NCBI GenBank assembly: GCA_010093605.1
Contig: MU004201.1
Coordinates: forward strand, 501,106 to 565,105
Length of the DNA: 64,000 nucleotides
DNA from: Lophium mytilinum
Lineage: Eukaryota
Reading direction: 5' to 3'
Shown here: piece after piece, positions 25,785 to 50,000 of the stretch
Numbering within the stretch: position 1 is the first letter of the stretch
How the letters are laid out: each line of letters opens with the position of its first letter
The notes under the pieces: generated by a model
The model's input: the letters and a program-made list of their open reading frames with translations, nothing else
Told to the model about the DNA's origin: nothing
The model's database searches: none
Made by a program: the position numbers and the translations under genes

Positions 25785-25850
25785 TTTAAAGGTATAGAGT
25801 TGGTGTAAGAATAGATTAATAGATAGATAGATAGATAGATAAATAGAGAA
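25785..25850 (-). repeat. Fragment of the Copia LTR 3' end running into (GATA)n
   Basis: TTTAAAGGTATAGAGTTGGTGTAAGAATAGA matches the LTR termini at 39697, 54539 and the reverse complement of 61559. Confidence 0.55.
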
Positions 25851-26127
25851 AAAGTAATAAATTTATAAGTAGATATATAGGTAGATAAAAGAGCATTAAA
25901 TAATTAAATAGATAAAATATAAAAATATTAAAATATAAGAAACTAAATAGATAGATAAATAGATAAATAGATAAAGAGTAAGTAACTAGTATATAATTAG
26001 AAGTATAGATAGATATATAAATACTAAAAGTTTAGTAGATAGATAGATAATTATAAAAAGTAGTTAGAACCTATCTTATTAAACCTTTATATCTTTACCT
26101 AAAATTATATAGTACTCTATAGTATAT

Positions 26128-29100
26128 TATTATTATTATTAAATTCTATTACGCTAGTGTAGCTCCCGTTAGGGTCCATATAGCTATTCTATCTAGGCTA
26201 ATTTATAAGGGGAAACTGTTTGCTACCGGGCAGCGTTCGGGTGAAAACCTCGTCCTCTATTATATCTGGCGTTAGGCGCCCTTCTCCTTTATATTTTACT
26301 ATAGGGGATATATAGTAGGTCTATAAGAACTGCTATAGAATAAGCCATTAAAATGCGTCTTCCTATATCTATCCGGGAAGGTTCGTCGTCGTCCTTCTAG
26401 GTTTGGGCCGAGTGGAATCCAGATGCGAGGCTAGTATAGAATTAGCGTAAGGGCCCGCGTGCAAGTGGTGCGCTCGCGGGGCCTTTATCTAAGGTAATAA
26501 GGTAAAATAAATAGTAGCCGTGTAGGCTGTTAGAGATGGAAAGGCTGCGCGGCGTGTAGGTAGTATATAGCGGAGGTATATAGAAAGTATATAGTTTATA
26601 GGCAGGCTATAAGAGTAGAAGGGCTGCAAGCGGCTATATAGAGTTTGCAGCCGTAGTGGCACGTATAAGCCTCTGTGGCATGGCTAACAGCTATAGGAGG
26701 GCTAAGAGTGTAGAGTATATAGTTTATAGTCTGCAATTAGGAAGTATACAGCCGCTTATAGCAAGTATAAGCCCTTATAGCATAACTAACTAATAGCGGG
26801 AGGGAGGGAGCCGCGTGTATATACTGTTGTAAAGTAGGTAGGCTGTTTAGAAATAGGAGGGCTGTAAGGGATAGGAAGTATATAGAAAGTATACATTGCA
26901 GGGTATATAGCAGAGACCTAAAGCTAACTATCTATACCAAGTACTAGTTAAGAGGGGGCGCTAAGGCCCGCTGTAGTGTAGTTAGGGGTAATAGTAAGGC
27001 TATAGGTAATAGTAAGGCTATAGGTAATAGTAAGGCTATAGGTAATAGTAAGGCTATAGGTAATGGCAAGGCTATTAGTAATGGCAAGGCTGTTAGTTAT
27101 AGCAAGGCTGTTGGTTATAGCAAGGCTATAGGTAATGGCAGGGCTGTAGTATTAAGCGGGAGGGCTAGGTCTACTCCCTTTCCATCTCTCTCGCCATTAA
27201 GAGGTAGGGTAGCAGGTCTATTTTCTATAGAAACTACCTAGCTACTACCTTAGGTCCCTTTTTACTTTTATATATTTCCTTATACATCCAAGTCTTTACT
27301 TCCTTAAATAGTTCGCCTCTACCCTCTATATGCCTCTTGCAGTTTATTACTACATAGCGTGGCAATTAGAGGCCGTGCCCGCAGGGGCAGGCTAGTGTTA
27401 GGTAGCCTAGCACCCGCATACGGTGCAGGTATCCGTTAAGCCCTATATGCTCTATTTATAGGTTTATAAGAATAGTGCTTTTAACCTTTATAAGCCCTTT
27501 ATATATAGTCTCCTATTATTTACTCTATTTAGTATTAAGGGCCGGCGTTAGTAGCCCGCGCCGTTCTATTTTATAAAAGGACTCCCATGCCTTCTCCCAC
27601 CTTTCTTTATATTTGCATTTAATCGTAAATCGCCTTAAGCGCTCGTAGGCTTTATCTAATTTGTCTTTATACCTAGTGCATAACCTTATAGCCTTTACTG
27701 CAAGGTTACGGAGTATATTACAGCAGCTAGGGCCGTACTTTAGCCTTATAAGTAGCCTATAGTAGGTGTAGATTTCCTGTTATATATTGCTGCATGCTGT
27801 TTTAATATACTAGCGTGCTGGCCCTTTGCGCGTGTAGTCCGCGTAAGCCACTATAAGTTCCTCTAGTTTTAGCTAGAGTAGTAGGCATAACGTTTTATAT
27901 TCTAGTACTGTAGTGCTTATAGTCTTATAGGCCCCTAAGATTCTCCGGAGGCATTAGTTCTGGGTTATTTTAAGCTGCTTAATCTTTGTCTTACTAAGCT
28001 GCTCCGGCATGCCTAGTACAGTGTACTAGGTAGTGCATCCGTATATAATGGCAGGCCGGACCACTACCAAGTATATTAGGTGTGCTTTCCTAAAGCTAGC
28101 GCCCTAGATAGATGCTATAAGCCGCGTAAGTACCCCTATCTAGGTTACAGCTTTATTCTTTATAATGCTAATGTGCGGGCCCTATTTAAGCTTTAAGTCT
28201 ACCTACACTCCTAGTACTCTTAGGTCCATTATAGGGCCCTCCGTGAAGCCTTATATATTAACTGTAGCTCTTAGGTTAACTTCTTTATAGGCTCTTGTAA
28301 AGTGTATTAGGTAATATTTATCTAGTGCGAATACTACGCCGTACTTTCTTGCCTATTCCATGCATCTATTGTAGGCTCTCTTAATGGCCCTGCAGTTTGC
28401 CTCTGTGGTTCTACTATATATAAGGATATTTATATTATCTATAAACCCGTAGGCCGTTATATTGCCGTTCTAAAGGGTTAGCAGTAGTATACTAGCGAAG
28501 AAGAGGAAGAGGATGGGCGATAGGGAGGAGCCCTGCGGAATGCCTGTAGTAACTGCAATTAGTTCTACTATGTAGCTTCCTATAGAGAGCCTAGTTATGC
28601 GGTCTTATAGAAAGGACCTAGTAAACCTTATTATCTACTCCAGTACACTCTAGACCCGTAGGTTGTATATTATTTATTCATGTAAGACTTAATTAAACGC
28701 TCCTAATATATCTAGGCTAAGAAGTAATGCTATAAGCCGTGGGTTTCCTTTCTATACAGTATAAATTTATTCTATAAGGAGTTTAAGTGCTGTCTATATA
28801 GAGCGTTCCGGCCGTGCCCCTATTTAGCTAGGCGGTAGCATACCCTTTTCCTCTACTATCTTAAAGAGCCTCTTAGCTATAATGCGTTTAAATAGCTTAC
28901 CTATTATTTCTAGCAGCGCAATAGGCCTGTAGGCTTTCGCTATTATATAGAACGCTTTCTAGGGTTTACGTAGAACTACCGTAATTAATTCTTTAAACGG
29001 GCGGGGGTAGTGTCCTCTATATAGGTACTTTATAAAGAAGCGGGCGAGTACTAGTGCTAGTTATATCTTGCACTTCTTTAGGAATCTATTTATAATTCCT

Positions 29101-32100
29101 GTAATTCTAGAGGCCTTATCTAGCGCGATTTCTATTAGTGCTAAGAGTATGTCTTCTATAGTAACTTCTATAGAGGTAGTGTATAGTTCTAGGTATTAGA
29201 ACCCTTCTAGGTTAGATAGGTTAGCTTCCACCGGTGGTGGAAAGAACTATTTGGCGAGTATGCATGCTTTTATCTTGTTATCTGCATGCAGGGTAGAGTT
29301 ACCTGGCCAGGAGAGGGGGGGAAATTAAGGAGGGGGCCTCGATTCCTTTCTAACCGTGCGGCCCCATTTAGCTAGTTTCTATGCCCCTTTAGGGTTGTTC
29401 GTTACCTTCTCCACCGTGCGGCGCTATGCCTTAGTGCTCTCTTTCTATATAGCTCTTTTCTTATAGTTATACTAGACCTAGTATAATATCTAGTCCTCTA
29501 TAGAGCGTAACGAGCGCTATATTCTATACGCCCGCCTAGTCTTATATACCTCCTCTAAGTACTTCTTAGTCTAGAATAGTAATGCGTGCTATAAGGGCCG
29601 TGCTATTAGTACTATAGTATTAATAGTAATTTTAATAAGTTAGTAGAGAATGCGTATAAAGTTATCTAGGTCTTCTTCTTCTTTATTGTCCAGGGGGTTA
29701 TTCTAGTTTTCCAGCTTAACTAGCTAGGCTGCAAGGTGCTCCTATACGTCCTTCTATATAATATTCTTCTATAGCCGGCGTAGGGGCTATTTAGTTGCTA
29801 GTAGTAGTGTAATATTAAATTCCGTGTATATAGGGCGGTAGTCTAAGTAATAGTTCTACTCCTCTTAAACTATGCAGGATGTTATATATTTTATTAGCCA
29901 TTTAGATATAAACATAAGGTTAATTATAGTCTACTACGTTCCTCTTACCTATATTTCTATGCCCTCCTCTATAGCTAGGGTTAGGCCTGCTTCCATTATA
30001 ATGCGAATAAGCTCCTTAGCTTACTCTTCTACACTAATTACCTATATTCCTCCCTAGGACGGGTAGTATAGGTTTATATCGCCTATAAGTATATGCTCTG
30101 CCTCCTTATATAGTATAGAGGGCAGCGTGGCTACAATCCTATATAGCTTTAGGTTGTAGATGTTATAAATTTAAATGTCCTCTCCCCCGGCCTGGAGGGA
30201 GAGGGTAATAAGGTCTGGTAAGTAGTACTCTATAGTCTATTAGCCTAGGTTTAGGCACTTATTAATATACGTGTATATTCTAGCTTTTAGGCTTCCTCTA
30301 TATAGTAGGTAGTATAATTTTATACGTAGTAAGGTGTATTTCTAGGTGTTCTTCTATAGTTCTTATATAGCTAGCACCAACGGCTAGGGCTAGGCCGCCT
30401 CTACCTTCTCGAGGAACTCCCTTTAGGTCTCTTGGCTCTTATTAACGTTGTACTATATAATAGTAAGTATATTAGGTTACCCTAACATTAGGTATCTATA
30501 GAGTCTTTAGGGTTATTTATTACGGCCCGGCTAGCCTTAGTATAGAGCTAATAGCTCGCTGCCTCTTCTTCCTAGGTGGACGGCACCTGAGTTACGTTAA
30601 ATTGCAATAGTCCGGCGTTATCACCGTAGGTTGTTGTCTAAGAGTGGTGTAGCATTTTATAGGTAGGCTGCGGGGTTCTATAGAAAGGCTGCGGGCTGTT
30701 ATAGCAAGGCTGCAGGTTGTTATAGTTAGGCTGCTGCGTTAAATAGAAAGTATGCATTAATTAGGTAGTCTATATAGCATAGGCAGACTATAGCACTCTA
30801 TTTATCTTTAGTTATTTTAGGTTCTTATGCGCGGCGAATATAGCGGATATAGGGGGGCGTCCTACTCTCCTTAGAGTGCTGCCGTCTAGTGCGTTGCTGT
30901 TCTTAGTAGCCTTCCTCTTTCTACTTACCGCGTTAAGAGCTTATAATTCTATTATGGATTGGAATATTACTATACCCGGCGTGTTATTAGTGTTATTATT
31001 AGAGCTATTATTAGCCCTATAGTAGGTTAGTGCTGCCCACCTCTTTATATTAGCTTTTAGTTAAGCATTCTTCCTTATAGTGCACGCCGCACTATATAAT
31101 AGGTGGCTTCTCTTACAGTTAGCGCACTTTCTAATGCTCTCCTCTGTGCATTATCTTATATTATGAGCTCCTGCGCACGCCGCGCATACCGCCTCCTTCT
31201 TGCAGTATCTAGCAACGTGCCTATAGCCCTGGCATTAGAAGCATTAGGTAGCTGTAAAGCCTGCCTTATACCTTATAGCCTCTAGCATGTATCCGTCCCA
31301 TGCCAGCCCGCTATCTATAATCTTATTTACCATTGCCTCCGTGCCTATAGTAACTATAGCCGATAAGGCGCGCCGTTTAGGGTTATTTCTAATGGCCTAG
31401 ATCTAATTTAGGTGCTTCCACGTAATCTTATATATAGCTAGGCCTAGGTATAGTGCCTTATTATCTTATATAATACTGCTTTGCAGCGTTGGGTCCTCTA
31501 GGTCCGTCTCTTTAGGTACTCCGTGCACCTCTAGGAGGACCTTAGGTAGTTAGATTTATACTGTTTTGCCTAGGACCTTTATCTATTCCTTCTTCTTTAT
31601 TAGGGCTTTCTTAGCGGTTGCGTCCGGCACGTAGGCCTTCACGTCTCCGCTCTGGAGCTTTCTAACGCCGTAGATCTTTATTATGTTAGGCTCTCCTGCC
31701 GCTTAAAGCTTATAGGTAATAGTTGCGTTTAAGTCCTTATTTATTGCGGCGCGTTCCTTCTTATCCTTAATGTGTATAGTGATTTTATGGGTAGTCTACA
31801 TTACATACTCCCTATTTCCTGCAGTCTTACTATTTCTTCCTGCCGCCGTTACCGCTGTATAGGTTGTTTCTTATACAGACAGCGCCTATACGCCCTTCCG
31901 CGTTTCCTCTATTATTTTTATTATCTTTCTCCATGGCGTTTATTATAGGTCCTCCGCAGTACCTAAGAGGCTAGCTAGTACGCGCCCGGCAAAGTTCTAG
32001 AGGTGCTTAAGGGCGTTGTTCATCTCGGGGTTAGGGGATATAGGCTTATTCTGTAGGGAGTCCTGTATGCTATAGGCTTCTTTAACAAGCGCTTAAACGT

Positions 32101-32364
32101 CGGCGTAGACGTTCTACTTAGTCTTCAGTTAGTAGATTTAGTTTTAGAGTTGTTGTTGGTGTTATTAGTAGTGTTGTTGTTGTTGTTGTTATTAATGATG
32201 CTGCACGATAGGGGTTGCGATGCGTAATTCCACCGCGACGCCGCCAGTACGGCTCGTAGAGCTCTGATACTGCGTGCGAACGTTCGTAGGGCCTTGAGTA
32301 GCCCCTAGGGGCCCTCCTTGGGTCGTATTTCCAAGGTGCTGCGAATTTAATTGCATTGTTTTTC
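26128..32364 (-). mobile_element. Full-length Tad1-like LINE, RIP-inactivated (copy 1)
   Basis: 13-bp TSD CTCTATAGTATAT at 26115-26127 and 32365-32377; (TAA)n tail. ORF1 has Cys/His knuckles. ORF2 has the endonuclease region, RT motif GIPQGSSLSPILFLFF and a C-terminal CPCG zinc finger. TAATG ORF1/ORF2 junction at 30490-30486. Confidence 0.95.
26984..27150. repeat. 18-bp tandem repeat in the LINE 3' UTR
   Basis: About 9 units of GGCTATAGGTAATAGTAA; mirrored at about 52270-52432 in copy 2. Confidence 0.85.
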
Positions 32365-33059
32365 CTCTATAGTATATATAATATATTTTTAAATAAGAAT
32401 TCTTTTCCTTAATATTTATATATCCTTATTCTACTTAATCTTTTAGTTAACTTAATAACTTATAGCTATAATAAGTAAAGCTTTCTTCTATTTATAATTA
32501 TTAGAAGCGAAGATAAGAGTATATATACAGCTATATAGACATTTAAGTTTATTATTTATACTATCTAAGTATAATAACTTTATATAAGCCTATATATAAT
32601 CTATATAGCCTTTCTATATAAACTTATACTTATCTATTATACTAAGTATGCTATTATATTATTACCTATCTACCTATCTAAAAGTATACTAGAACTAATA
32701 ATACTTTAACTTATTATAGGGTTATATTTCTACTATTTCTTGCTAGCCCTTATTATTATAATATCTCTTACTTTAAATTTATTTCTATGTAAGCTAATAT
32801 AAGAAATATAAATACCTAAGATTTACTATTAAAGGCTATTAATAAGGCTAGTATCTTACTCGTAATATAAGGCCCTAATTAAAGTGTAGAAAAGAATATA
32901 TAGTATAGAGAAGTACTATTTATAGTAATACTTTATTTAAAGAAAGTATTTGAATAATAGACTATGTAAGTAGGTTAAAACTTTTAGTGTGCGCTTTTTA
33001 CTAAGTAGTAGATTAATTATTAAAGTATATATGTACATAAATATATCTATATACTAATT

Positions 33060-33480
<421 letters not shown>

Positions 33481-34891
33481 CTATATATCCACCCTTATAT
33501 AGTATTGCAACTGTACTTTTATTACACCTATAGTGAGTAATATAGGGAGAAACCTCTACTAATACATATACCTGGAAGATAATGAAGGTACTTCCAATAT
33601 CTTGACATAGATATATAGATTTTATATAAGTTAGAGATTAGAGAAGTTTAAGATTATTTAAGTAAAGGTATAGATTCTTGCCTTTAAAGACTTGTATTTA
33701 GGTTTAATTAAGGAAACTATATATATAGTAAGAGAAAGAGTATAAGCAATAGCAGAGCAGATAAAATCCGCTCTAAAGCTCTAAGATATAAAGTATTATT
33801 TATCTCTAATCTTTTCATAGCTATAATACACTATAGTACTTTAATCTTGACTAAATCTATAAACAACCCTCTATGATTTATAATACGCTACTGCTATAAA
33901 TTACTTTCTGCAATCTCCTATAAATAGTATATTAACTATTTCTTTTAGTTTACTATTATTAGCTTAGATTATAGGCATGATAAATTTCTTTATAAGCTCT
34001 ATTTATAATAGGAAAGACTTACTAATCTTTATTTACCTCTACAAAATCCTAAAACATCTAAAACTACTTATATCTACATCCTATAATAAATAAGAAGGTG
34101 TAGAAGGAGCTATATAGAGCTATAGGTTAAAAGAAGTTTTATTATATCTTTAGTATTTTTACTTTTTATATATTAAATAGACTAGGAGAATATCTATACT
34201 ATAAATATATGGGTAAGTTACTGCGTAAATAGATAGACTATATAATATATATATATATAAATAGCTATAAAGTAATATTATTCTAGGTAGGTACTTTAGT
34301 CTGCTAAATACGCTTTTTAATTAGCTTTCAGTAGAGTATTTATTAAAAGGTATATTTCCTTCTTTAGCATAACTACTATATATATCCCTACTATAACCTC
34401 TTAAATAATAAAAGCGTAGTAGCCTTATATATAAACCCGATAATACTGTTTAATAGTGAGTAAAACTATAAGCATTTAAAGGTAATATAGGGAAGTTGGA
34501 TAATAGTATAGAAATATTTTATAATATAGTAAAGTATATATAAGTTTATAATCTTATTACTATTGATATAGACTATAGTATAAGTAGAATAGTCCTGTCT
34601 ATCTAGCTATCTATCTACCTTATATAACTCTTTAACCTCTAATACTATTATTTTAGTATAGTATAACAAATAACTAGAAAGAGCTATATAGGAGATTTAA
34701 GTAGTTGTACTAAGAATACTTTTTACATTTACTTTATTTCTCTACAGCTTTAGTTCTCTATAATACAACCTTATAAGTTATAGTACTTTATAATGTTAGT
34801 AAAGTGCTATTACTTAGACTAGCAATACTACTTTACTACAGTTATAGCATAATAACAACTTGCTACTTTTTATTACATGTATTACATTTAT

Positions 34892-34945
34892 TGTAACGTT
34901 AAAGAAATAGAGTCAGTATAAGAATAGATAGATAGACAGATAGAC

Positions 34946-35004
<59 letters not shown>

Positions 35005-35160
35005 ATAAATAATATATTACTTAAGTTCTATTCTATACCAATAGTAATAGAGTTGTATATGTACGCTATTTCTTGCATTATAGAATAATTGTCTAATAAT
35101 TATTATAATGCGTTCAAACGCTTATAGTTTATCTGTAAGAATATAGCGTTTATGCTATAA
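34892..35160 (-). repeat. Diverged solo LTR related to the Copia LTR
   Basis: Shares GAATAGATAG…TTAAGTTCTATTCTA…GAGTTGTATAT…GCGTTCAAACGCTTA blocks with 39697-39956. Confidence 0.6.
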
Positions 35161-36569
35161 AAAAACGTGAATATAGTATATAGCTGCAATTAGCAGCTAT
35201 AAAAGTAGAATATATACTACACTACTAAATACGCAATTAGTAGCAATTAGCAGCCTCTTGCCGCTAAATAGCTAGAATATTTCTCCCTAATTCAGTAATA
35301 TCTAATAATATGTCTAGCTATATTCTTTACTAAACTATCTACTATAGTAACCCTCTTACTCTTTTATATATTATTTTTTATACCTATAATATTATTAGTA
35401 TTAGTACTAGTATCCCCTCTAGCTTATAGTTATTAAAGGTGTATTTCTATTATTATTAATTTCTATTATACTATACTAGCTCCTACTAGGGTTTATATAG
35501 CTGTTCTAGCTAAGCTAGTCTATAAGAAGAAAATGTTTACTGCTGCCTAGTATTTAGATAAAAATTATGTCTTCTATAGTATATAGAGCTAAGCGCTTTC
35601 TTTCTTACTATTTTTTACTATTAGGGACTTATAGTAAGTCTATTAGGCCTGCCTTAAAGGTATATAGTATATATAGTACTAAGGTTATAATAGTTATAGC
35701 TTACTAATATAAGTATACTTAAGTAAGTAATATTAAATATATATTTAAAGAATCTTAAAAGTAATAAAAAAGTAGTTACTAGACTTTTAAATATTTTCAT
35801 TTAAATAAACTTTTAATATAGTAAATAGTCCTTTTACCCTATTAGAAAGCATTATATTAAGTTAATAAGGGAACAATAAATTCTCTACTTAAGTAAAAAA
35901 TAATAAAAGAATTATATATAGAATGCACATAAATATATAAATTAGTAAGTAAATAGATGGATATGTAATAAAAAATTATATAGTATACTTATTTTTATTC
36001 TATTAGGGTTACCTTATTAGTCTTCCTTAGAGGCTATATATATAATAACTATTATACTTATATAGTTAGAGACTATATTTAGCTACTAGGTATATAAACT
36101 AGGTAATAATAGAGAGAGTTATAGCCTAAATAAAAATAAGCCCTTAAAACTAAAGTTATATATAGTTATAGTACAATTTATAGATATACAGGTAAAGTAG
36201 ATAGTAAGAGAGTAAATATAACTTTAGTAGTAACTAGTAAAGGAATATTTATAATCTAGTAGAGAAGTAAAAATAGCAATTTTACTTAGTAGAAGCACTA
36301 TAATATTTCCTTTTAAGACTCTTTTCCTAGTAGAGTAAGCAGTAATAGAAAGTATTTTTAGGGCTATTTCCCCCTAAAATAGTAGCAGCGCTCTATATTA
36401 AAGTATAGTAGCAGTCTATACCTAGTAGAGAACTAGTTACCTTAGCTTATTTAAAAAAAACTTTTTAATTATATAGGTTACTTTCCTTTTTTATAATAAT
36501 AAAGCTATATAAAGCACTATATATACTCTAATAGGTTTAGAAGGACTTATTATAGTAGAATAAACTTGT

Positions 36570-36574
36570 TTTTA

Positions 36575-36637
<63 letters not shown>

Positions 36638-36686
36638 ATATCTATCTATCTATATATCTATATATCTATCTATCTATATATCTATA

Positions 36687-36760
<74 letters not shown>
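36570..36760. repeat. (TATC)n microsatellite
   Basis: Direct reading. Confidence 0.95.
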
Positions 36761-36762
<2 letters not shown>

Positions 36763-37258
36763 GGTATTTACGCCTCTTTCTAATACCTTAAAGTATCTAC
36801 TCAATTTTCTAATATTATATTTAGTTTTAACAGCCCAAATTATATACTAATAGTAATTAAGTATAGTACATAATATAACCTTTCCTTTAGCTTAGCTCTA
36901 AAAATAGGCATACTAGCTAAATAAGATTTTATTAAGGGCAAGTACTTTACAAAGATATTTTATTAAATTCTACTTCCCCTAGATATACTCTACCTTACTA
37001 TCTAGTAGATTATACTTCTATTAATATCCCTTATATATTATTCTATAATATCCCTTATAGACTATCCTATATCTTACTAAGAGTTAACTACTCTACTATA
37101 ATCTAGAAATATACTATTTATTTATTAAAAACATTAGTAAGTAAACTCTATATTACTTAATTACTTTATAGATATTAGTAGCTATAGTATCTATAAAGTT
37201 CTATATAAAGGAAAAAGGGTATATACTAAAGTAGTAAGGCAATAAGATAGAAGTTTAA

Positions 37259-37845
37259 GGATAAGTTTAATTACTACCCCCCCTTTCTCTCTATAGCACC
37301 CCCTATATTAAGCCTAGCTCCGGCCCGGATAAATATTATTCTACTAATTAGACTTACTTACTTGCCTCTATATAAGCTATCTAGGCTAATAAGAGTCTAT
37401 TTACTCTAGCAACTAGCGGACTACTCTACCGGCGGAAAGCGCCTAGATAGCTACTGTCTAACTACTAACTAGAATAGAACGCTAAATATACCTGTATTAC
37501 TAAAGCCTTACCCTAAATATTATTCTACTATACTAGTTCTATTAGGCGTTATCCTTTATACTTAGCCTGGACGTTAACAGACTTAATACTATCCTCTACG
37601 TATGCATGGCGGCTCTAAGGGGGCCAAAGGAGTATAGTATTAAGGGGGGGATGTAGAAGAAGTAGTGTTAATATATTAAGAGAGAGTGCGCTGTAGTAAA
37701 TTCCTTATTATAAGCAGGTAAGTAAGTAAGTTTAGTTAGTAGCAGTATTTATACGGGCTGGAGCTAGCCTAATATAGGGGGGGTAGTAGGAAAAGAAAAG
37801 AGGGGTGCTATAGAGAGAAAGAAGGGGTAGTAATTAAGCTTATCT
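37259..37845. mobile_element. Second long-TIR MITE of the 24964-25637 family, opposite orientation
   Basis: Ends GGATAAG…CTTATCT, same CTAGCTCCGGCCCG motif. 8-bp TSD AAGTTTAA/AAGCTTAA with one C/T difference. Confidence 0.85.
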
Positions 37846-38514
37846 AAGCTTAAGAGAGGAGGCTCTAAAGGGCTTAAATAGGCATGCCCCCCGGGATACT
37901 AAGGGGCGTAATATGCGTTTAAAGATTTAATAATTTACTAAATTCTATAATTTATACTACTTATTGCATTTTACTACGTTCTTTATTAATGCTAGAACTA
38001 AGAGATCCGTTATTAAAAGTTTTAATATTAACATTATTTTAGATAATTGCATTAATTACAACTAGTTTATTAAAGATATTAGATTTTTCTATAGGTAGTT
38101 AAGCCTACTAAGCTAAGGTAACTATTAAGTTTCAATGTATAAGGTTTAGTAGAAAAGGTACTCTAGAGCACCTTCCGGATATATTTTACTATAATAATCC
38201 TTCCGCAGGTTTACCTATGGAACGGATTAACGCAGCACTTAAGTATAAACAGGGTCGCTCTTTCCGTCTAAATTAGGGGAAGGTGCAATTATATTCATAC
38301 GTAAATAAAGCGTACACTTAAGTATAAATAGAGTCGCTCCTTCCGTTTATATTAAGGGAAGGTACAACCATGTTTATACTTAAGTAAAGCGTAAAATGCA
38401 TGTTTATTTACATATAGATAGTAGAGAAGGTGCAACTTATAATATTAAAAACTATAAGTTCGTCCTTGTCTCCTAACCTTTTCAACCAGCATTAGACGTC
38501 CTAAAATCTTCAAA

Positions 38515-39446
38515 ATGTCTGTTTCCACGCTCTCGGCCGCGCAACTTCTTGCTGCAGTGCAGCAGATTACAACCGCGCCCAATTTTGCGATTAAAAATCG
38601 CCATCTCACTGCCGCCGAACTCGCCGCCCTCCGCGCCAACCCACCAGTTTGGCCAACCGCGCCCGTCTTCTCGCCGTTTGCGAGTACCCATAATAGGTAT
38701 TCACAAGGTATATACTAGTTTGTTATTCTTCTTATACTTAAATGTCTTTTAATTTATGCCTCTAAGATCTTTTCAAACCTAAACATTCACATATTTGCGC
38801 TTTCCAAGTTCCTTTTAATGGCAGTTCTAATTTAGACATTGTTGCACTTCCTTCTTCCAGCGTAAACATTCCCATATTCACGCCTTCCAAAGTTTAGGCA
38901 TTGTTGCGCTTTTCTTTTCAAACCTAGACATTTTTATATCTGCGCTTTCCAAGTTCTGCTTCAACTCTTTCTTCCAAGAATTCTAGTACATACTTTAGGC
39001 ATTTTGAAGATTTACTGACATGCCCATGCTTTAGTTCGTGTCGCTGGCACCGGCACAAAATTTTTGTGTCATAGAATCACCTATGCACAGATGCATGGGG
39101 CACTTGGGGCTGGGCTGGATGCCAGCCATGCGATGTACCTGGGAAAGAGGACATCATCGCAAGCTAGCTGTCCAGTCTGGAAAGCCTTCCCCAGTATTAA
39201 CATTTCAATAGAAACATCAACCCGCGACATTTAGTCGCCGAGACCAATGCGACCAACCAGTCGCGCAAACTCTGCTTCCTGTTTATGGAAGAAATGCTCT
39301 GGCGCTGGGAGGTGGGCCTCGTGGGAGCTCACTGGTGGAGCAAAACTGACCTGAAGAATTATCTTCAGCAGTTGAATGGCGCTTGTGCCATTATTCATAA
39401 TCATAGGTGCGAGTGCGAGCCCAGCTTGTGGGAGGAGATGGACTAG
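38515..39446 (+). CDS. His-Cys box / His-Me finger (I-PpoI-like) endonuclease-like protein, 183 aa, 3 exons (38515-38707, 39035-39158, 39212-39446)
   Basis: The spliced frame is open: …YSQVRVAGTGTKFLCHRITYAQMHGALGAGLDASHAMYLGKRTSSNINPRHLVAETNATNQSRKLC…NGACAIIHNHRCEC. Intron 1 is GT..CTGAC..AG and intron 2 is a 53-nt GC..AG; phases are compatible. Gln and Trp codons are unmutated. Confidence 0.75.
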
Positions 39447-39696
39447 TGGACATTTGATAGATTCTGAGCGACTAATAATTTGAATACTGTTGCATTTTCA
39501 CACTTCACTGTCTATTGCAAGTATACTTATCCCTCTAATTTCTTAGAGGGCCCGACTATATCTTAAGCAAAGTTTTATATAAAAAACTTCACCCACTTAT
39601 ACTTAGTTTGTAAACGTTCCTTATATTTTTAGTAATAAAAACTTAGAGGCTTTGCTGCGGATTGCCTATATTTACTTCTATATAAAGTCGAAGAAG

Positions 39697-39956
39697 TGTT
39701 AAAGGTATAGAGTCGATGGGAGAATAGATAGATAGATAGATAGGAATTGTATTGCTTGAGTTCTATTCTACATTAATAGTAACAGAGTTGGATATATACA
39801 GCATTTAATGCATTGTAAAACGTTTCTCTAGCGTTCTTGTAACGTTATCTAACGTTTATTGTATTACGTTTAAACGCTTACGGTTTCGTTCTATTTAAAG
39901 GCTTTTGAGCCTATTATGCGTAAGAATATAACGCTTATACTATTATAGAATTTACA
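39697..39956 (-). repeat. Copia 3' LTR
   Basis: TG…CA termini, near-identical to 54539-54801; purine run AGGGGA precedes it on the minus strand. Confidence 0.85.
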
Positions 39957-39999
39957 CAGTCCCCTAAGGGTTATATCCTTATTTTTAAAATTCTTTTTT

Positions 40000-40026
40000 A
40001 AATAGATAGAGAGATAGGCGGATAGG

Positions 40027-40124
<98 letters not shown>

Positions 40125-40134
40125 NNNNNNNNNN

Positions 40135-40230
<96 letters not shown>

Positions 40231-40326
40231 ATACTAATGAATTGGTAAGTAGATGCATAGGTATATAAAGAGCGATGAATTAGTAAATAGATAGAAAGAT
40301 AGATAAATAGATAGATAAATAAATAA

Positions 40327-40404
<78 letters not shown>

Positions 40405-40600
40405 GATTTTTCTTTTTTGCATAGATAGATAGATAGATAGATAGATGATTTTTCTTCTTTGCATAGATAGATAGATAGATAGATGATTTTTCTTCTTTGC
40501 ATAGATAGATAGATAGATAGAATCTATGTATCTATGTATTTCCGTAATAGAGTTATATCTATATATCTATGTATCTATGTATCTATATAGATAGATTTCT
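40000..40600. repeat. (GATA)n array in the Copia 3' UTR with N gap
   Basis: Direct reading; N10 gap at 40125-40134. Confidence 0.95.
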
Positions 40601-42872
40601 ATCTATACGTTTATATTTATTTAGTGTCTAATCTTATGTAGTCTACTATTTTAGCAAAACTACTTCCTACTAATGGTTTAGTAAATATATTAGCTATTTG
40701 CTACTTTATAATAAGGTAAGCTAGCTTTATTAAGCCGTTTCGAACGTTTTCTCTTATAAAGTGATATTGTATATCAATATCTTTAGTTTTTGAGTAATGT
40801 TTGGGATTATTAGCTAGTTCTATAGCTGACTAACTATCTGTAAATAGATAGAAGTCTTCTTTATTTTTAATTTAAAGTTGTTTTAATATACTTATTAAGT
40901 ATATATATTCTTGTATAGTTTCTTTTAGTACCATATATTTAGATTCGCAACTAGATAGTGCTATAGATTTCTATAGTTTACTATTCTAGCTAATAGGTGT
41001 TTTTCTATAGGAAAAGTAATATCCTATAGTAGATTTTCTTCCTAATATATCACCCCTATAATCTGCATTAAAATAGCCTAATATATAAGGTGCAGGATCA
41101 TTAGAAGAAAATTTAACGCTTAGTCCTTGCGTAGGCTTATATAATAAGTATTTCCATATCCTTTCTAAAGCTTTAAAGTGAATAGGACTGGGATTAGATA
41201 TAAAATAAGCGCGTAGATTTACGCTATAGGCTATATCTAGTCTTGTTTTTATAGATAGATAGATAAGACTTCTAACTTATTATTAGTATAGTTTTATATC
41301 CTCTTTTAATGCCTGTTTATTGTTTTTCTCTAGTTTTATACCTATTTCTCCTAGTATAGAAACAGGATTTAGTTTCTCTTTATTAAATCCTTTTAAGAGA
41401 CTTTTTATATACTTTTTCTAGCTTAGTAATAGGGTTCTTTCCTTTCCATTACATATTATTTCCATATCTAGAAAATAGGATATAGGGCCTAGGTTTATTA
41501 ATTCTGAGTCTTTACTTAGTTTTAATTATAGATTTTCTATATCTTTTATATTTAGGCTAAATACTAATAAATTATCTACGTAGTAGACTATTATTATATT
41601 TAATTGCGTATATCTAAATACTACTTAGTCTATAATAGTAGTTTTAAAACTATACTTCTCTAGATAAGTAGCTAGATGTATATATATACTACTATCTAGA
41701 TAATTGTTTTAAGCTATATAAGGCTTTATTTAGTTTATAGACTTTATTATCTTTACTAAAACTATGTAGTTGTTTTACGTATAGTTTTTTATCTAACCCT
41801 GCATGCGTAAATGCGTTTTTAAAGTCCTATTATATTATTTCCTAGTTATAATAAGTAGCTATTATAAGTAAGAGCCTATATATTTCTAGGCGGTAGATAT
41901 TTGCAAAGGTTTCTTTATAATCTATGCTATAAGTTTAGCTAAGATCTTTTACTACCTATCTTGCCTTACATTTAGATATATTATTATCTATATTAGTTTT
42001 AATTTTACAGACCCAGCATCCTTTTAACGCATTTCTATTTACTAGTAAGTCTACTAACTTCTAGGTATTTTACTTATTAAGCTATTCTATTTCTATTTAC
42101 ATAGCTTCTATCTATTTATTATTATATAGAGATTCTATAGCTTGTTTATATATATTTGGCCTGTTATTATTATTAATAATAAAGGCTAATTCATCTTTAG
42201 ATAGATCCTCTGTGTATGCATTTATAGATAATTAAGTTTAGTTTCTATCTATATATGTATTTAATATAATAATTATACCTGGTTTTCATCTATGTATCTA
42301 TTTATCAAATTTGGATTTTATGTATATCTTTAAGTAGATTGATTTTTTAATGGTTTTATAGCTAATTTATCTTTAGATAAGCTTTTATCTATAATAGTAT
42401 TATTACTACTTTTATTTCTAATAGTATTATTACTACTTATTATATTATTGTCTATATTTCTATGTTCTTTTAGTGGCTTTATAGTATATTCTATAGAGCT
42501 TTCCGTTTTATTTACTTTATTCTTTATATTTAGAAAGCTTTCTATTATAATTATATCTCTTGCCTAGAAGATTTTGTAAGTTTCTAGATCTAATAATCTA
42601 TACGCATTTAAACTATAGCCTAATATTATAGCCTTTTTAGCTCTTAGTTCTAATTTAGTTATTTGCGTTTTAACCTTATAATAAGCTGTAAAGCTAAAGA
42701 TTTTAATATTATCTATTTTAGCTTTTCTTTTATAATATAGCTTAAATAGCGTTTTATCTTTTAAGCTAGAGTGCGGCGTTCTATTATATATATATACGGC
42801 CGCATTTACAGCTTCTCCCTATAGATTAAAAGGTAATTTAGCTATATATAATAGAGCCCTTACTATATAAAA

Positions 42873-45667
42873 GGCCGGTGCTAGATAGCCGACCCCTTTT
42901 TACTATTCGGCCGATGCCGTATTTCTAAGCCTACGCACCTACCTAAGGACCTTTTACCGCGTTCTAATTAGCTTAGAGGGCTTAGAGGAAGCTCCGGCCC
43001 TTTACTTAATATATATGCAGTCTTCCCGTTTAATATATAGGCTGTATAGCCTTACTATTTAGTATATATCTATATATCTATATGCCTACCTGCCTATAAG
43101 AATGCCTAAACCGTTAATTTTACATCTAATAGAGGCCCTCTCTCTATTACCGCTAGCCTATAAGTACCTATATAAAGTCCTTATTAATAAGATCCTCTAT
43201 ATACTTATTAAAATCCTTATTAGCCGCCTTATAAGCTGCCTTATAAGGCTGCGGTAGGGCTGTTAACTGCGCTATGCTTCCTGCGACAGGTTGTAAACCC
43301 CGTACCTGCGCTTCTAGTAGGGCAATCTTCCGCTTAAGGTCTACCTTTATATTCACACATTACTTCTTAGTAGAAGGGCCTAGTATTAAGTTTTTTAGTA
43401 GCCTGCCGCGCTTTCTAGGCTACTAAGTAGCTGTTAACGCAGCTATTAACGCTGTAGTACTCTTAGTAGTTACCTATTAACCTAAACCCTCTATATTTAG
43501 CTGCGCAGGTATTATTATAGGCTCTTGCTATATGCCCGCTAGTCGGCTGCCGCGCCTACTTCTACTAAGAGCTGCACGGGCTCTATTTACTAGATTATTT
43601 TACTCTATAATTTTAAATCCTAAGGGCTCTTATTAAGTAGAGTAGTTAGGCGTCTTTCTAGCTAGCCGCCCCTTATATTATTATATAACTTAAGGCTATT
43701 AGATAAGAAGTAGAGGGTTAATAGGGGGTAGCTTAGACGTAGGCGCTAGCTTAGTATAAGGCTGTATTAATAGCTAGTATCTATTAATTAATTCTAGTAT
43801 AGTCTTATAGACGTTTATTACTATATAGTATAATTCTTAGTATAGTTTATAATAGTAGAGTATACTATAGGTACTCTAGATTTACTAGAGTATATAGTAG
43901 TAAACTAATTCTTCTTAGCTAGCTAGAGCTACTTTTAAAGTAGCTATAGCCTCTAAGATATTACCTTACCTATAAGGTATTTAAATTTAGGTAGATTAAG
44001 GCTAAAAGGTATACTTTATAAGCTCTATATGCGGTTATTATTAAGCTTATTATACTACCTATAGATAAGGTTATCTATAGAGCTTACTATATTATAGAGG
44101 TCTTCTCTAGTATTCTATAAGCGCTTCTTTAGATAGCTATATAAGCCCTCTAAATGCAATATTACTATATTACTATAGTAAAGGTACTTTCTAATCTAAT
44201 AGTTAGAAAATTAAGTCTAGTATAGTGCCTACTTATCTATAAGGTAGCTAGCTAGAAGCGGTTTAATTAGTATATACTTATTAATTAGTTTCTTCTAGCC
44301 GGCTATAAAGTTGTTAATAAATTTAACCTATAGAAGCTTATTCTAGGCGTATAGAAACTTAGTATAATTAGCTTCTACTACCTTAAGCTAATCTAGTATT
44401 AGCTCTTCTTCTTCTTTATATATTTCTAGTGCAGTAAGTAAATACTATTTATTCTTCTTCTATAACTCTATAGCTTTTAATCTAATATTCTTTATAATAT
44501 ACTATCTATATAAAACCTATTTAACGCTAGAAAAATACTATATAAGCGCGTTCTTTAGAGCCTTCTCTTTATCTATAATAAATATATAAGGTATAATATC
44601 TAGTTAGTAATAGAGGTCTATAAGAGCCTATATAATAAAGAGATAATTAGGTTCTATTTTACTAGCTAAGAACGTGTAGCCTATTTTATAGTTCTAGTTA
44701 GAGAATATAACTCTAGTTATATATAATATTAGTATAAGGAAATAATTTATTTTATATATATAATCTAGAAGTAGAATATCTAGATTCTTCTTAAATATTT
44801 TAAGGCTATTAGGATAAATAAAGAAGAGGTAAGTAACGCGTTGTATATTATCTAGAAGAAAGCTATAGTTATACTTCTTACCGCCTAGACCTCTATATAT
44901 TTCTAGCTATTAGAGGAGCGCCTATATAGGCGTAAGGCTACTAAGTTTCTTCTTTTTATATCTATATTTCTTATTATATATATCCTTTATATTAATTTTT
45001 TACCTAGTAAGTAGAAGGCTATTAAGGATTATATCTAGTTAAATATTAGAGTTAATCTAATAATATATTTCTACTACTATAGAGGGCGTGCGCTTCTAAT
45101 AAATAGCCGGCAGGCTATTATCTAGAAACAGCTTATAATTATACTTAGTATAGCCTTCTATAGTAGTATAGTAGTACTTACTAGAGCTATTAACTACCTA
45201 TATATTACTAAGAAACTAGTAGTTAGTATACTTTAAAAACTTATTCTATATATATAATAGCTTTAGATTAGATAGTTTACTACTATAATTATATTAAATA
45301 GTAATCTATTAAAGTTCTTCCTTACTATTTTTATATAAGCGCCAACGGATAATTCTATAGCCCTCTTTTATTGCATGCCAGTTAATAGACTAAAGCGCAG
45401 CCTTAATATTAATATAGAAGTAATTAGGTGGCGGCCTTAGCTCTATAAGTAGTTTCTCTATAGTATTAAAGGAGGTAGAGAAGGTAGAGAAGTAGACTAT
45501 TAAGTATATAAACGTATAAATTTAGAATCTATCTATACTCTAGAGGAGCCGGCCCAATAAGTAAGCTAATTAGAACGCGGTAAAAGGTTCTTAGGTAGGT
45601 GCGTAGGCTAAATAGAAATACAGCATCGGCCGAATAGTAAAAAGGGGTCGGCTACCTAGCACCGGCC
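42873..45667 (-). mobile_element. Mutator-like (MULE) DNA transposon inserted in the Copia integrase
   Basis: About 55-bp TIRs GGCCGGTGCTAG…GACCCCTTTTTACTATTCGGCCGATG; approximate 8-bp TSD ATATAAAA/ATATTAAA. Minus ORF RVTYLFFIYPNSL…ILLLDYIYKINK is the RIP form of LLDCTYKTNK. LEGLYSYLKK and a SWIM-like remnant follow. Confidence 0.9.
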
Positions 45668-47040
45668 ATATTAAATATAGTTAAGTTAATTTACTATATT
45701 AAGCTATTTTATTCCGGCATATAGAGGCTTAAGAATTAATAGGTTATACCTATTTTTAAAAGAGTTACTTTAAACTTCTTATTTATATATTCTCCCCTAT
45801 TATTAGTTTTAAAGATTTATATCTTTCTTTTATCCTCTATACTTTTAGTCTTAGCTTTATATCCTAGAAAGGCGTTATAAGTTTTATCTTTAGATTTTAA
45901 TAGTTTATATTCTAAATATCTATCTTAAAGCTATATCTATAAAGAAGATAATATATTTATTACCCCCTAAACTAGGTGGATTTATAGGCCCTGCTAAATC
46001 TAAAAAGACTTTTTTTAAAGAAATTACTATTTTTAGTATTATTTCCTTACTTCTCTTATTTTTTATTATTTTAGCTTTTATATAAGCTTTATATTATATA
46101 GATTCTTTTATAGTTATACCTAATAGTATACTAAGCTTTCTAGCGCTTATATAGCCTATTCTTTAGTGCTAAATAGATAGATTATTTCTATCTATATATA
46201 TATTTATTAAATTGCTTTTATCTATCTCTTTATATATTTAGTTTCTAAAAAGTGTTGTATTTTCTATATTTATATAATATAAAGAGTCTTTAAGCATTAC
46301 TATTACTAGTATAGTATTATTCTTATATATAGCAGCTATTTTATTTTTAAATATAATATTTATTTTTATAGAATCTAGTTTACTTATAGATATTAGATTA
46401 TATCTAAAGTAAGGTATAAAAAGGTACTTTTCTAGTAGAAATATATTCCTATTTAGTTTTAATTATACATTTCCTACACCTTCTACAGTTATAGTTTTAT
46501 TTTCTCCCTAATTTAATATAGTAGCTTACTCTTTATAGCTAGTAAATAGCTTTCTATCTACTATTATATAGCTTGTGCTCCTGGAGTCTAATATATAATT
46601 AGCTTTATTATTAGAAGTATAATAGGATGCTAGAAATATCTTTACTTTAGCTGCATCTAGATTTATATTAAAATCTCCCTAATTATTAGGGTTAGATTCC
46701 TCTATAATAAAGGATTCTTCCTTATTTTCTTTTAGTAGTTTAAATTATTCTTTAGCTCTAAACCACTTTAGTGCCCTTTTAGGAAATAAGTAGAAATAAT
46801 CCTAAATAAGGTGTATAGCTGTTTTGCACTTCTTATAGTATTGTTTTTCTATAATATTCTTATTTTTAGGTAAGAAGTTTTTAGTTCTATTAAATAGAGC
46901 CGTTTTATGCTCTTTAGACTCTTATCTCCTTACTTTATCTATTAAATTAGAGAACAAATTATCCAATTTAATATTAGATAAATTTTCCCTATAGGATTGC
47001 GTGACTATTATTATAAACCTATTATAGGGGTTTATTAAAT

Positions 47041-50000
47041 AGATATATTAACGCCGAAAACGATGCAATTAAATTTGCAGCACCTTGGAAATACAACCTA
47101 AGGAGGGCCCCTAGGGGCTACTTAAGGCCCTATAAACGTTTACACGCAGTATTAGAGCTCTACAAGCCATGCTAGCAGCGTTGTAGTAGAATCACGCATT
47201 GCAACCCCTATTGTGCAGCATTATTAACAACAACAACAATAATAATACCACCAATAACACCAATAACAACCCTAAAACTAAACCTACCAACTAAAGACTA
47301 AGTAGAACGTCTACGCCGACGTCTAAGCGCTTATTAAAGAAGCCTATAGTATACAGGACTCCCTATAGAATAAGCCTATATCTTCTAACCCCGAGATAAA
47401 TAACGCCTTTAAGCACCTCTAGAACTTCGCCGGGCGCGTACTAGCCAGCCTCTTAGGCACTGCGGAGGACCTATAATAAACGCCATAGAGGAAGATAATA
47501 AAGATAATAGAGGAAACGCGGAAGGGCGTATAGGCGCTGTCTGCACAAGAAACAACCTACGCAGTAGTAACGGCGGCAGGAAGAAATAGTAAGACTGCAG
47601 GAAATAGGGAGTATATAATGTAGACTACCTATAAAATCACCATATATATTAAGGACAAGAAGGAACGCGCCGCAATAAATAAGGACTTAAACGCAACTAT
47701 TACCTATAAGCTCTAAGTAGTAGAAGAGCCTAACACAATAAAGATCTACAGCGTTAGAAAGCTCTAGAGCGGAGATGTAAAGGCCTACGTGCCGGACGCA
47801 ACCGCTAAGGAAGCCCTAATAAAGAAGAAGGAATGGATAAAGGTTCTAGGCAAAACGGCATAAATCTAACTACCTAAGGTCCTCCTAGAGGTGCACGGAG
47901 TACCTAAAGAGACGGACCTAGAGGACCTAACACTACAAAGCAGCATTATATAAGATAATAAGGTACTATACCTAGGCCTAGCTATATACAAGATTACGTA
48001 GAAGCACCTAAATTAAATCCAGGCCATTAGAAACAACCCTAAACGGCGCGCCTCATCGGCTATAGTTACTATAGGCACGGAGGCAATAGTAAATAAGATT
48101 ATAGATAGCAGGCTAGCATAGAATAGATACATGCTAGAGGCTGTAAGGTATAAGGTAGGCTTTACAGCCACCTAATACTTCTAATGCCAGGGCTACGGGC
48201 ACGTCGCTAGACACTGCAAGAAGAAGGCGGTATGCGCGGCGTGCGCAGGAGCTCACAACACAAGATAATGCACGGAGAAGAGCATTAGAAAGTGCACTAA
48301 CTATAAGAGAAGCCACCTATTATATAGTGCGGCGTGCACTATAAGAAAGAATACTTAACTAAAAGCTAATATAAAGAGGTAGGCAGCACTAACCTACTAT
48401 AGGGCTAATAACAGCCCTAACAATAATACTAATAACACGCCGGGCATGGTAATATTCTAATCTACAATGGAATTACAAGCTCTTAACGCGGCGAGTAGGA
48501 AGAGGAAGGCCACTAAGAATAGCAACGCACTAGACGGCAGCACCCTAAGGAGAGTAGGACACCCCCCTACATCCGCTACATTTGCTACGCATAAGAACCC
48601 GAAACAACTAAAGATAAACGGAGTGCTACAGTCTACCTATACTACGCAGACTACCCAATTAATATATACTTCCCGTTTAATGCAGCAGCCTAACTATAAT
48701 AACCTGCAGCCTTACTATAACAGCCCGCAGCCTTTCTATAGAACCCCGCAGCCTACCCATAAAACGCTACACTACTCTTAGATAATAACCTACAGCGATA
48801 ACGCCGGACTATTGCAATTCAACGTAACTCAGATACCGTCCACCTAGAAAGAAGAGGCAGCGAGCTATTAGCTCTATGCTAAGGCCAGCCGGGCCGTAAT
48901 AAACAACCCTAAAGACTCTATAGATACCTAATATTAGGGCAACCTAATACACTTACTATTATACAGTATAATATTAACAAGAGCCGAGAGACCTAAAGGG
49001 AGTTCCTCGAGAAGGTAGAGGCGGCCTAGCCCTAGCCGTTGGTGCTAGCTATATAAGAACTATAGAAGAACACCTAGAAACACACCTTACTACGCATAAA
49101 ATTATACCACCTACTGCATAGAGGAAGCCTAAAAGCTAGGACATGCACGTATATTAATAAGTACCTAAACCCAGGCTAATAGACCGTAGAGCACTACTTA
49201 CCGGACCTTATTACCCTCTCCCTCTAGGCCGGGGGAGAGGACATTTAAATTCATAATATCTACAACCTAAAGCCACACGGGATTATAGCTACGCTGCCCC
49301 CTATACTATATAAGGAGGCAGAGTATATACTTATAGGCGACATAAACCTACACTACCCGTTCTAGGGAGGAATACGGGTAATTAGTGCAGAAAAGCAAGC
49401 TAAGGAGCTTATTCGCATTACAATAGAAGCAGGCCTAACCCTAGCTACGGAGGAGGGCATAGAAATGTAGGCAAGAGGAACGCAGTAGACTATAATTAAC
49501 CTTACATTTACATCTAAATAGCTAATAGAATGTATAACATCCTACACAGTTTAAAAGGAGTAGAACTATTACTTAGACCACCGCCCTATATACACGGAAT
49601 TTAATATTACACTACTACTAGCAACTAAATAGCCCCCACGCCGGCTATAGAAGAATATTATATAGAAGAACGTACAGAAGCACCTTATAGCCTAGCTAGT
49701 TAAGCTAGAAAACTAGAATAACCCCCTAGACAATAAAGAAGAAGAAGACCTAGATAACTTTATACGCATTCTCTACTAACTTATTAAAATTACTATTAAT
49801 GCTATAGTACTAATAGCACGGCCCTTACAGCACGCATTACTATCCTGGACCGAGGAGTGCTTAGAGGAGGTATATAAGACTAGGCGGGCGTATAGAATAT
49901 AGCGCTCGTTACGCTCTATAGAGGACTAAATATTATACTAGGTCTAGTGCAACCGCAAGAAAAGAGCTATACGGAAAGAGAGCACTAAGGCATAGCGCTG

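Follow-up and report, generated by a model that had tools for sequence, protein, structure and literature searches.

How can a gene stay readable where everything around it has been degraded? The question is raised by a locus of the fungus Lophium mytilinum, at positions 38515 to 39446 of a 64,000-nt stretch of contig MU004201.1 (assembly GCA_010093605.1, positions 501,106 to 565,105), which is called the window here and whose own numbering is used throughout. On its plus strand, three exons splice into an open frame for a nuclease of 183 residues, in the middle of DNA that carries the marks of repeat-induced point mutation (RIP). The original prediction took the gene for a free-standing His-Cys box endonuclease in a RIP-destroyed transposon nest, perhaps domesticated, perhaps the nuclease of an unrecognised mobile element. 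The answer reached here, to which a probability of about 0.85 is given, is that it is an antisense His-Cys box homing endonuclease gene (HEG) which belongs to an S1506 nuclear group I intron and has survived intact in a truncated, RIP-mutated fragment of ribosomal DNA (rDNA). With this, the apparent novelty is removed: the supposedly free-standing nuclease is an intron-borne HEG, a selfish gene of known type found in an unusual location.

An intron remnant joined to ribosomal DNA

The gene is not free-standing, because it is still inside its own intron remnant, which is joined to the 3' end of the small subunit (SSU) rRNA gene, internal transcribed spacer 1 (ITS1) and the 5.8S rRNA gene. On the minus strand, in the sense of the rRNA, the order is the 3' half of a group I ribozyme, a spacer of 85 nt, the antisense HEG, an intron tail of about 292 nt that ends in G38223, 31 nt of SSU rRNA, ITS1 and 5.8S (Table 1). 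Together these parts make up an rDNA-derived piece of about 1.85 kb (roughly 37844-39696), which is set among the remains of long interspersed nuclear elements (LINEs) and of a copia element. The earlier picture of an intact gene in a ruined transposon nest holds for the contrast in RIP and for the LINE and copia remains, while the immediate flanks are rDNA and group I intron.

The ribozyme half was matched at 62.8 bits by scanning 39440-39700 alone, the gathering score of its Rfam model (RF00028) being 50 bits; it has purine/pyrimidine 18-mers in common with L007, one of the related loci described below, and is also supported by the DNA alignment. At the other end of the intron, the terminal G is joined on the minus strand to TTCCATAGG, and the junction of the intron tail, '...CCG|TTCCGTAGG', is also found in six intact loci. 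The two tandem repeats of this tail are 84% alike and also form a 78-nt imperfect inverted repeat. Upstream of 5.8S, the minus strand reads '...TTAATCCG|TTCCATAGGTAAACCTGCGGAAGGATTATTA', which is the SSU rRNA 3' end altered by three transitions, and a transition-degenerate SSU pattern of 30 nt has a single match, at 38192-38221, with 0 mismatches (0 of 100 shuffles).

The window retains the 3' end of the intron, G38223 followed by SSU sequence, and no 5' splice site. When purine/pyrimidine 18-mers were matched against intact rDNA loci, only the 5.8S, the SSU end and the intron core were recovered. Large subunit (LSU) rRNA was not found in 34000-37900 with Rfam at E<=10, and transition-degenerate versions of three rDNA primers gave chance-level matches only, of which the one at 42398 falls within the copia element. 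Two other candidates were rejected. A full-length ribozyme forced onto 39532-39882 (minus strand) reaches only 43.8 bits, less than the gathering score, since from 39697 to 39958 the sequence is that of an unrelated dispersed repeat, and an intron start near 39950 was discarded on the same ground. Scanned alone, this repeat of about 265 nt gives no group I intron signal.

Relatives in intact ribosomal DNA

Eleven metagenome loci (L001-L011) were retrieved by a search with an alignment of 11 protein sequences, and they show the gene in better-preserved surroundings. Eukaryotic SSU genes (6), 5.8S genes (3) and LSU genes (2) were recognised among them, and a group I ribozyme adjoins the gene in 8 of the 11, at 83-115 bits. 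The gene has the context of an SSU 3'-end intron in all but L001, which is a contig of 1012 nt, and within these ten loci it is antisense to the rRNA in nine and sense in L004. Both in the window and in 10 related loci, the HEG is located 3' of the ribozyme core.

The insertion lies between GTCGTAACAAGGT and TTCCGTAGGTGAACC of SSU rRNA, with both junctions present in intact related loci: '...CCG|TTCCGTAGGTGAACC' occurs in 6 of the 11 on the strand that does not encode the gene, and the 5' exon 'GTCGTAACAAGGT|' is likewise seen in 6. The intron was placed after the U that lies 36 nt from the end of E. coli 16S rRNA, because only that cut gives a 5' exon U and an intron G (the group I rule); the site name S1506 rests on E. 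coli 16S numbering. Judged by these junction sequences, the host intron is an S1506-type group I intron at the SSU 3' end, of which the window shows the 3' junction and the intact relatives show both.

Two of the loci deserve separate mention. In L004 (positions 1-1336), the gene, the SSU rRNA and the ribozyme are on one strand, and there is no spliceosomal intron. L005 has a second, distant paralogue in the same rDNA unit (5179-5442; 29% identity over residues 51-137), which is antisense within another SSU group I intron (Rfam 4846-5759). Further, lower-scoring ribozyme matches, down to 56.1 bits, are found elsewhere in the SSU genes of L005 and L003.

This context bears directly on the possibility that the gene is a free-standing or domesticated nuclease, one that has parted from its mobile element and that the host retains by selection for a cellular function, or that serves as a drive gene. 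The intact open reading frame, with every family-conserved column kept, would suit such a history, as would the degradation of everything else around the gene and the truncation of the host ribozyme, through which the gene can no longer move with its intron. It is nevertheless very improbable, given that the gene is physically within an intron remnant joined to SSU, ITS1 and 5.8S and that the relatives are intron-borne in 10 of 11 loci; in addition, the nearest relative is 52% identical, with no close orthologues to show conservation, and intron 2 has a weak GC donor. The proposals of domestication and of an unrecognised mobile element have likewise lost their ground, now that the host intron is identified and relatives are found in the same intron of intact rDNA.

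An I-PpoI-like nuclease

The product of the gene is a His-Me finger nuclease of the I-PpoI-like (His-Cys box) kind, as had been proposed from its motifs, all of which are located in the 183-residue protein: H77-R78, A94-S95-H96, N109-P110-R-H-L, E116...N121..R124..C127 and C164-x3-H168-x3-C172. In the Pfam and structure work and in the large database searches, this protein was represented by the public 167-residue model of the locus, by single exons and by the homologue P0003. A profile search of 1.84 billion representatives returned 264 proteins or clusters at E<=0.001, with 97 of them reaching E<=1e-10 and 17 reaching E<=1e-30; fragments of mis-called genes are frequent among them. The 32 near-full-length members have the (nearly) invariant pattern N.HL...WP..P...Y...HR...SH...N.NP...E....N..R..C...C...H....C in common. 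PF05551 (zf-His_Me_endon) is matched by 16 of these 32 relatives at E<=0.01 (best 1.6e-6) and HNH_3 by three, and the nearest clusters in a protein atlas carry PF05551 (66% of members) or HNH_3.

A profile built from the 32 relatives matches I-PpoI in the PDB sequence set with an E-value of 5.5e-5. The alignment runs over I-PpoI residues 92-125 and pairs the family's S-H with S97-H98, N-P with N107-P108, E with E114, N with N119, R with R122 and C with C125. In this way, H96 and N121 of the window protein are the counterparts of the catalytic H98 and the metal-binding N119 of I-PpoI, and the two catalytic residues are kept, as predicted. The structural comparison points in the same direction. 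The AlphaFold (AF2) model of P0003 (177 residues, 150-row alignment) has a mean predicted local distance difference test (pLDDT) score of 96.7 and a predicted template modelling (pTM) score of 0.90, and exhaustive structural alignment places I-PpoI first among 48,161 chains (Z 6.1, root-mean-square deviation 3.8 A, 113 residues, 22% identity), followed by I-HmuI (Z 5.0), Smad4 MH1 (4.9) and NFIC (4.0), after which the values drop to 3.3. Two of these, I-PpoI and I-HmuI, are homing endonucleases, whose His-Me fold we take to be shared by the MH1 and NFI domains.

The zinc sites call for a qualification. The first zinc site of I-PpoI consists of C100, C105 and H110 plus an N-terminal Cys, and it is not matched here: the C100 and C105 columns are Leu/Tyr and Arg/Thr-like in the family and M/S-like in the window protein, in agreement with the predicted replacement of the two Cys after ASH. 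The equivalent of H110 is a His in the window protein and is not conserved among the relatives. As aligned, this site, which helps to define the His-Cys box family, is missing throughout the subfamily, and membership has to be qualified to that extent. For a candidate second site (C125, C132, H134 and C138 of I-PpoI), C127 aligns with C125, and 10 or more of the 11 relatives retain C164, H168 and C172, at a spacing that differs from that of I-PpoI; between C127 and the C164/H168/C172 cluster lies a helical insert of about 35 residues.

Named relatives come from Lipomyces, Rasamsonia, Elasticomyces, Trichomonascus, Orbilia and Sorochytrium, and all of them are called 'hypothetical protein'. In Sorochytrium milnesiophthora (Blastocladiomycota), six accessions on six contigs fall within one 90% cluster (P0016 and P0156-P0158 among them). 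Because the six lie on six contigs, the gene is multi-copy in this species, with copies that may be in rDNA units. Limited searches of the literature on S1506 HEGs, on nuclear His-Cys HEGs in Ascomycota and on free-standing His-Cys genes found no account of this fungal family. Through the related loci, a sizeable and almost unannotated protein family is linked to the SSU 3'-end intron, where its genes are usually antisense and carry conserved spliceosomal introns; the family is without the first zinc site of I-PpoI.

Gene model and splicing

Spliced as in Table 1, the exons give 552 nt of open frame, from the ATG at 38515 to the TAG at 39444-39446. The donor of exon 1, CAAG|GTATAT, is at the same codon position as the donors of L007-L011, and the intron that follows has TACTGAC 20 nt from its 3' end. 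This intron contains three diverged tandem repeats of about 60 nt, with a mutual likeness of 62-72%, and its 327 nt compare with 50-70 nt for its counterparts in homologues. No AATAAA was seen near the stop codon on inspection of the sequence.

A database search with exon 3 retrieved the public model of the locus (P0001), a 'hypothetical protein' of Lophium mytilinum with 167 residues that is 100% identical over the shared part. Its donors are GTACCC and GTACCT, and 16 residues of the 183-residue model are thereby lost. Both disputed stretches, '...SPFATTHxGYSQ...' and '...SHxLYLGxxT..NINP...', are retained in homologous proteins. At the position and phase of intron 1 (after the YSQ codon plus one base), a spliceosomal intron is present in five of the 11 loci (L007-L011) and absent from the other six. 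At the position and phase of intron 2, four loci (L005, L006, L007 and L010) have an intron with a GT donor; it is lacking in L004 and ambiguous in L002. Of the five loci that this comparison did not settle, the DNA alignment shows it in L003 (GTAAGT) and shows none in L008.

Because homologues keep the disputed residues and have introns at exactly its two positions, the 183-residue model is, on comparative grounds, the better of the two, and the public one would be mis-spliced, with 16 conserved residues missing. The three-exon structure that was first proposed, including the position of its GC-AG intron, is borne out in this way. All 34 of the alignment columns that are conserved in at least 10 of the 11 homologues are kept in the window protein, the closest relative of which is 52% identical to it.

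RIP stops at the borders of the cassette

Both RIP indices, TpA/ApT and (CpA+TpG)/(ApC+GpT), are strongly shifted from 24 to 59 kb, save in the bin that contains the HEG. The three exons together have a GC content of 54%, with index values of 0.47 and 1.67, and the indices of the HEG's own introns and spacer are not shifted. The ITS2 side, 5.8S, ITS1, the intron tail and the ribozyme half have TpA/ApT values of 1.4-2.3 and (CpA+TpG)/(ApC+GpT) values of 0.4-0.6. In windows of 120 nt, the index changes as a step at ~38460-38520 and again at ~39480-39540. The flanks are RIP-mutated and the HEG cassette of about 1 kb (about 38470-39530) is not.

The substitutions themselves give the same picture. 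Compared with two intact 5.8S genes, the 5.8S relic has 107 identical positions. C>T or G>A changes are found at 25 of the 63 conserved G/C sites, and the other differences are 2 transitions of other types and 1 transversion. The C>T or G>A changes depend on context: they affect 5 of 7 CpA, 10 of 11 TpG and 7 of 16 CpG sites, and none of the CpT (0/6), CpC (0/4), GpG (0/5) or ApG (0/6) sites. In the conserved part of the ribozyme (39515-39680), 7 changes are of the RIP type and 1 is not, over 56 columns. In the HEG exons, of the 116 columns at which four intact loci agree, 102 are the same, 4 have RIP-type changes, 3 other transitions and 7 transversions.

Copy number is the most likely explanation of the pattern. 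RIP has hit each stretch of the fragment that is repeated elsewhere or borders on a repeat and has left the HEG cassette untouched; the cassette would then have been the only part without a second genomic copy, for example if the working rDNA array carries an HEG-less intron. Single-copy status fits the cassette's escape from RIP, and no second HEG copy was found within the window by blastn.

A purely geometric explanation, in which RIP spread inward over a few hundred bases from repeated sequence at both ends (rDNA at one, the dispersed repeat at the other) and died out short of the HEG, needs no HEG-less intron copy. Leakage of RIP from repeats into adjoining unique sequence is known from fungi, and the RIP-mutated intron parts are short (about 292 nt and about 170 nt), each adjoining repeated sequence. 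Against it, the RIP index shows steps and no gradient at both borders of the cassette, and the conserved ribozyme positions are hit as clearly as 5.8S. Leakage as the cause is considered unlikely, if worth keeping in mind. The locus is a clean natural example of RIP that stops sharply at the border of a unique segment.

Weighing the evidence

Several observations speak against the identification as an S1506 intron HEG left intact. At the protein level, PF05551 scores 17.1 bits with the public 167-residue model and 19.6 bits with exon 3 alone, the Pfam cut-off being 27 bits; the Z of 6.1 is a middling value by the aligner's own note; the modelled structure belongs to P0003, which is 40% identical to the window protein; and a Foldseek search of that model against the PDB gave no match at E<=0.001, with weak rows for Smad MH1, I-PpoI, I-HmuI and NFI. 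At the level of the locus, the 5' exon, the 5' splice site, P1-P5, the SSU body and the LSU were not found in the window, and RIP leakage from neighbouring repeats could also yield the observed pattern. In the gene itself, the donor of intron 2 is GC in the window and GT in relatives; without its use, the frame runs into a stop at 39232-39234, and the GT donor of the public model would delete conserved residues instead.

The last of these points is central to a rival view of the gene, namely that it is dead and has not yet decayed: it escaped RIP as a single copy but is silent, the change from GT to GC in intron 2 is a disabling lesion, and the open frame reflects youth, not function. Fungi usually package RIP-mutated, AT-rich DNA as heterochromatin, and the surroundings of the gene are of this kind. 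Besides the donor, which is GT in four relatives and whose read-through reaches a stop, the enlargement of intron 1 to 327 nt with repeats is consistent with such a relic. Then again, GC-AG introns form a normal minority class of spliceosomal introns, and the gene has 183 codons without a stop, a frameshift or a lost conserved residue. The repeats of intron 1 are only 62-72% alike, which suggests elapsed time without damage to the exons. Degeneration of nuclear HEGs is common, at least as described for the introns treated in one report (PMC2585584), and overall the chance that this copy is dead is put at nearly, though not quite, even.

As the HEG of an S1506 intron near the 3' end of the SSU gene, the gene lies 3' of the ribozyme core, antisense to the rRNA, and has two spliceosomal introns, a layout known from other nuclear His-Cys box HEGs. 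Its action can be sketched by analogy. As in I-PpoI, H96 would act as the general base that activates water and N121 would hold the metal. The enzyme, if made, would cut intron-less SSU rDNA at the insertion site, around GTCGTAACAAGGT|TTCCGTAGG, after which repair templated by an intron-bearing copy would propagate the intron. Homing of the fragment as a unit is not possible, since the window lacks the 5' exon, P1-P5, the SSU body and the LSU; from its present locus, the element could at most supply an enzyme that acts in trans.

Such action in trans has been considered as a split homing system, in which the stranded HEG is expressed, is shielded from RIP as a single copy and cuts intron-less SSU rDNA elsewhere. 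This is improbable. If true, a trans-acting HEG would force the rDNA array to keep or re-acquire an HEG-less S1506 intron, with the nuclease and the intron at different loci. More generally, the locus raises the question of whether an HEG can survive, or even act, after the destruction of its intron and its rDNA host.

Other features of the window

The features are collected in Table 1. The LINE blocks, about 6 kb on each side, have frames with hundreds of stops (218 in one frame). They are two copies of one LINE in inverted orientation that bracket the AT-rich zone, and their outer parts are alike (32000-32362 and 47057-47419, 88%). The segment at 37671-37843, just below the 5.8S relic, is similar to other repeats in the window.

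Other copies of the ~265-nt repeat were located by blastn at 54539-54803, 56083-56343 and 61182-61391, with a partial copy at 34984-35085. The ends of the repeat are TGTT...ACA, and a (TAGA)n array lies within or next to it. At 56344-56619, the repeat runs on into sequence like the ends of the LINE copies (52850-53112 and 26307-26580). Because of this continuation, the repeat may represent the 3' terminus of the LINE together with a (TAGA)n tail, of which 5'-truncated copies were inserted, in one case into the group I intron. How far the intron fragment really lies from the copia element is uncertain, because an assembly gap lies in the (TAGA)n array.

Table 1. Coordinates of the features discussed in the text, in window numbering.
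Feature	Position	Strand	Remarks
LINE copy, RIP-degraded	~24500-32500	-	RVT_1, Exo_endo_phos_2
5.8S rRNA relic, full-length, RIP-mutated	37868..38021	-	GC 31%; Rfam 97.4 bits, E 3e-23
ITS1 relic, RIP-mutated	38022..38191	-	GC 25%; between SSU end and 5.8S
SSU rRNA, last 31 nt (3' exon)	38192..38222	-	three transitions; sequence reading and degenerate pattern
Group I intron 3' tail, RIP-mutated	38223..38514	-	terminal G at 38223; two 79-nt tandem repeats at 38236-38393
HEG exon 1	38515..38707	+	residues 1-64 and first base of codon 65; from spliced translation
Spliceosomal intron 1	38708..39034	+	327 nt, GTATAT...TAG
HEG exon 2	39035..39158	+	H77-R78 and catalytic S95-H96
Spliceosomal intron 2	39159..39211	+	53 nt, GC-AG, GCAAGC...TAG, with TTAAC
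HEG exon 3	39212..39446	+	NINPRHL, N121, R124, C127, C164, H168, C172, stop TAG
Group I ribozyme core, 3' half, 5'-truncated, RIP-mutated	39532..39700	-	Rfam Intron_gpI (RF00028), 62.8 bits, E 6e-16, model 79-253
Dispersed ~265-nt repeat copy	39697..39958		removes ribozyme 5' half; blastn copies in window
(TAGA)n array	39947-40520		next to ~265-nt repeat; assembly gap (N run near 40125-40134)
copia element	40560-43100	-	RVT_2
LINE copy, RIP-degraded	~46800-53200	+	RVT_1, Exo_endo_phos_2

Comparison with known systems

I-PpoI, from an LSU rDNA intron of Physarum polycephalum, is the type His-Cys box homing endonuclease and has the His-Me finger core in common with the window family. Enzymes of the I-PpoI family are homodimers that cleave the intron-less allele where the intron inserts. 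Unlike I-PpoI, this family is without Cys at the positions of C100 and C105 and has an insert of about 35 residues before C164/H168/C172, and unlike the I-PpoI gene, the HEG of the window is antisense, has two spliceosomal introns and is linked to SSU, not LSU.

The arrangement has closer parallels in myxomycetes. I-DsqI in Dsq.L2066 and the HEG of Dir.S956-2 are antisense His-Cys HEGs with spliceosomal intron(s) that are reported to be spliced, polyadenylated and active, with DNA cleavage at the insertion site (PMC9548176). Like them, the HEG of the window is carried by an extension 3' of the ribozyme core, antisense to the rRNA, and has small spliceosomal intron(s). The two myxomycete introns, by the same account, are at other sites, belong to group IE and reside in working rDNA (PMC9548176), whereas the window element is fungal and sits at the SSU 3' end, its spliceosomal introns are one of 327 nt and one of the GC-AG type, and its host intron is truncated and RIP-mutated.

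With regard to the insertion site, the nearest counterparts are the S1506 introns of Porphyra and other Bangiales, for which complementary-strand His-Cys HEGs in all stages of decay are described in the relevant sections of one study (PMC2585584). The HEG of the window is at the same rDNA site and also on the complementary strand. The red algal HEGs are reported from a P1 extension, whereas those of the window and of 10 related loci are 3' of the core.

For the fate of the rDNA, a parallel exists in another fungus, the Dothideomycete Leptosphaeria maculans, where RIP-mutated rDNA units flanked by short tandem repeats and a LINE are mentioned in the corresponding passages of a report on that species (PMC3105345). 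There, whole and partial units of the array are concerned (PMC3105345); in the window, the rDNA is a fragment of 1.85 kb that includes an intron-borne gene spared by RIP.

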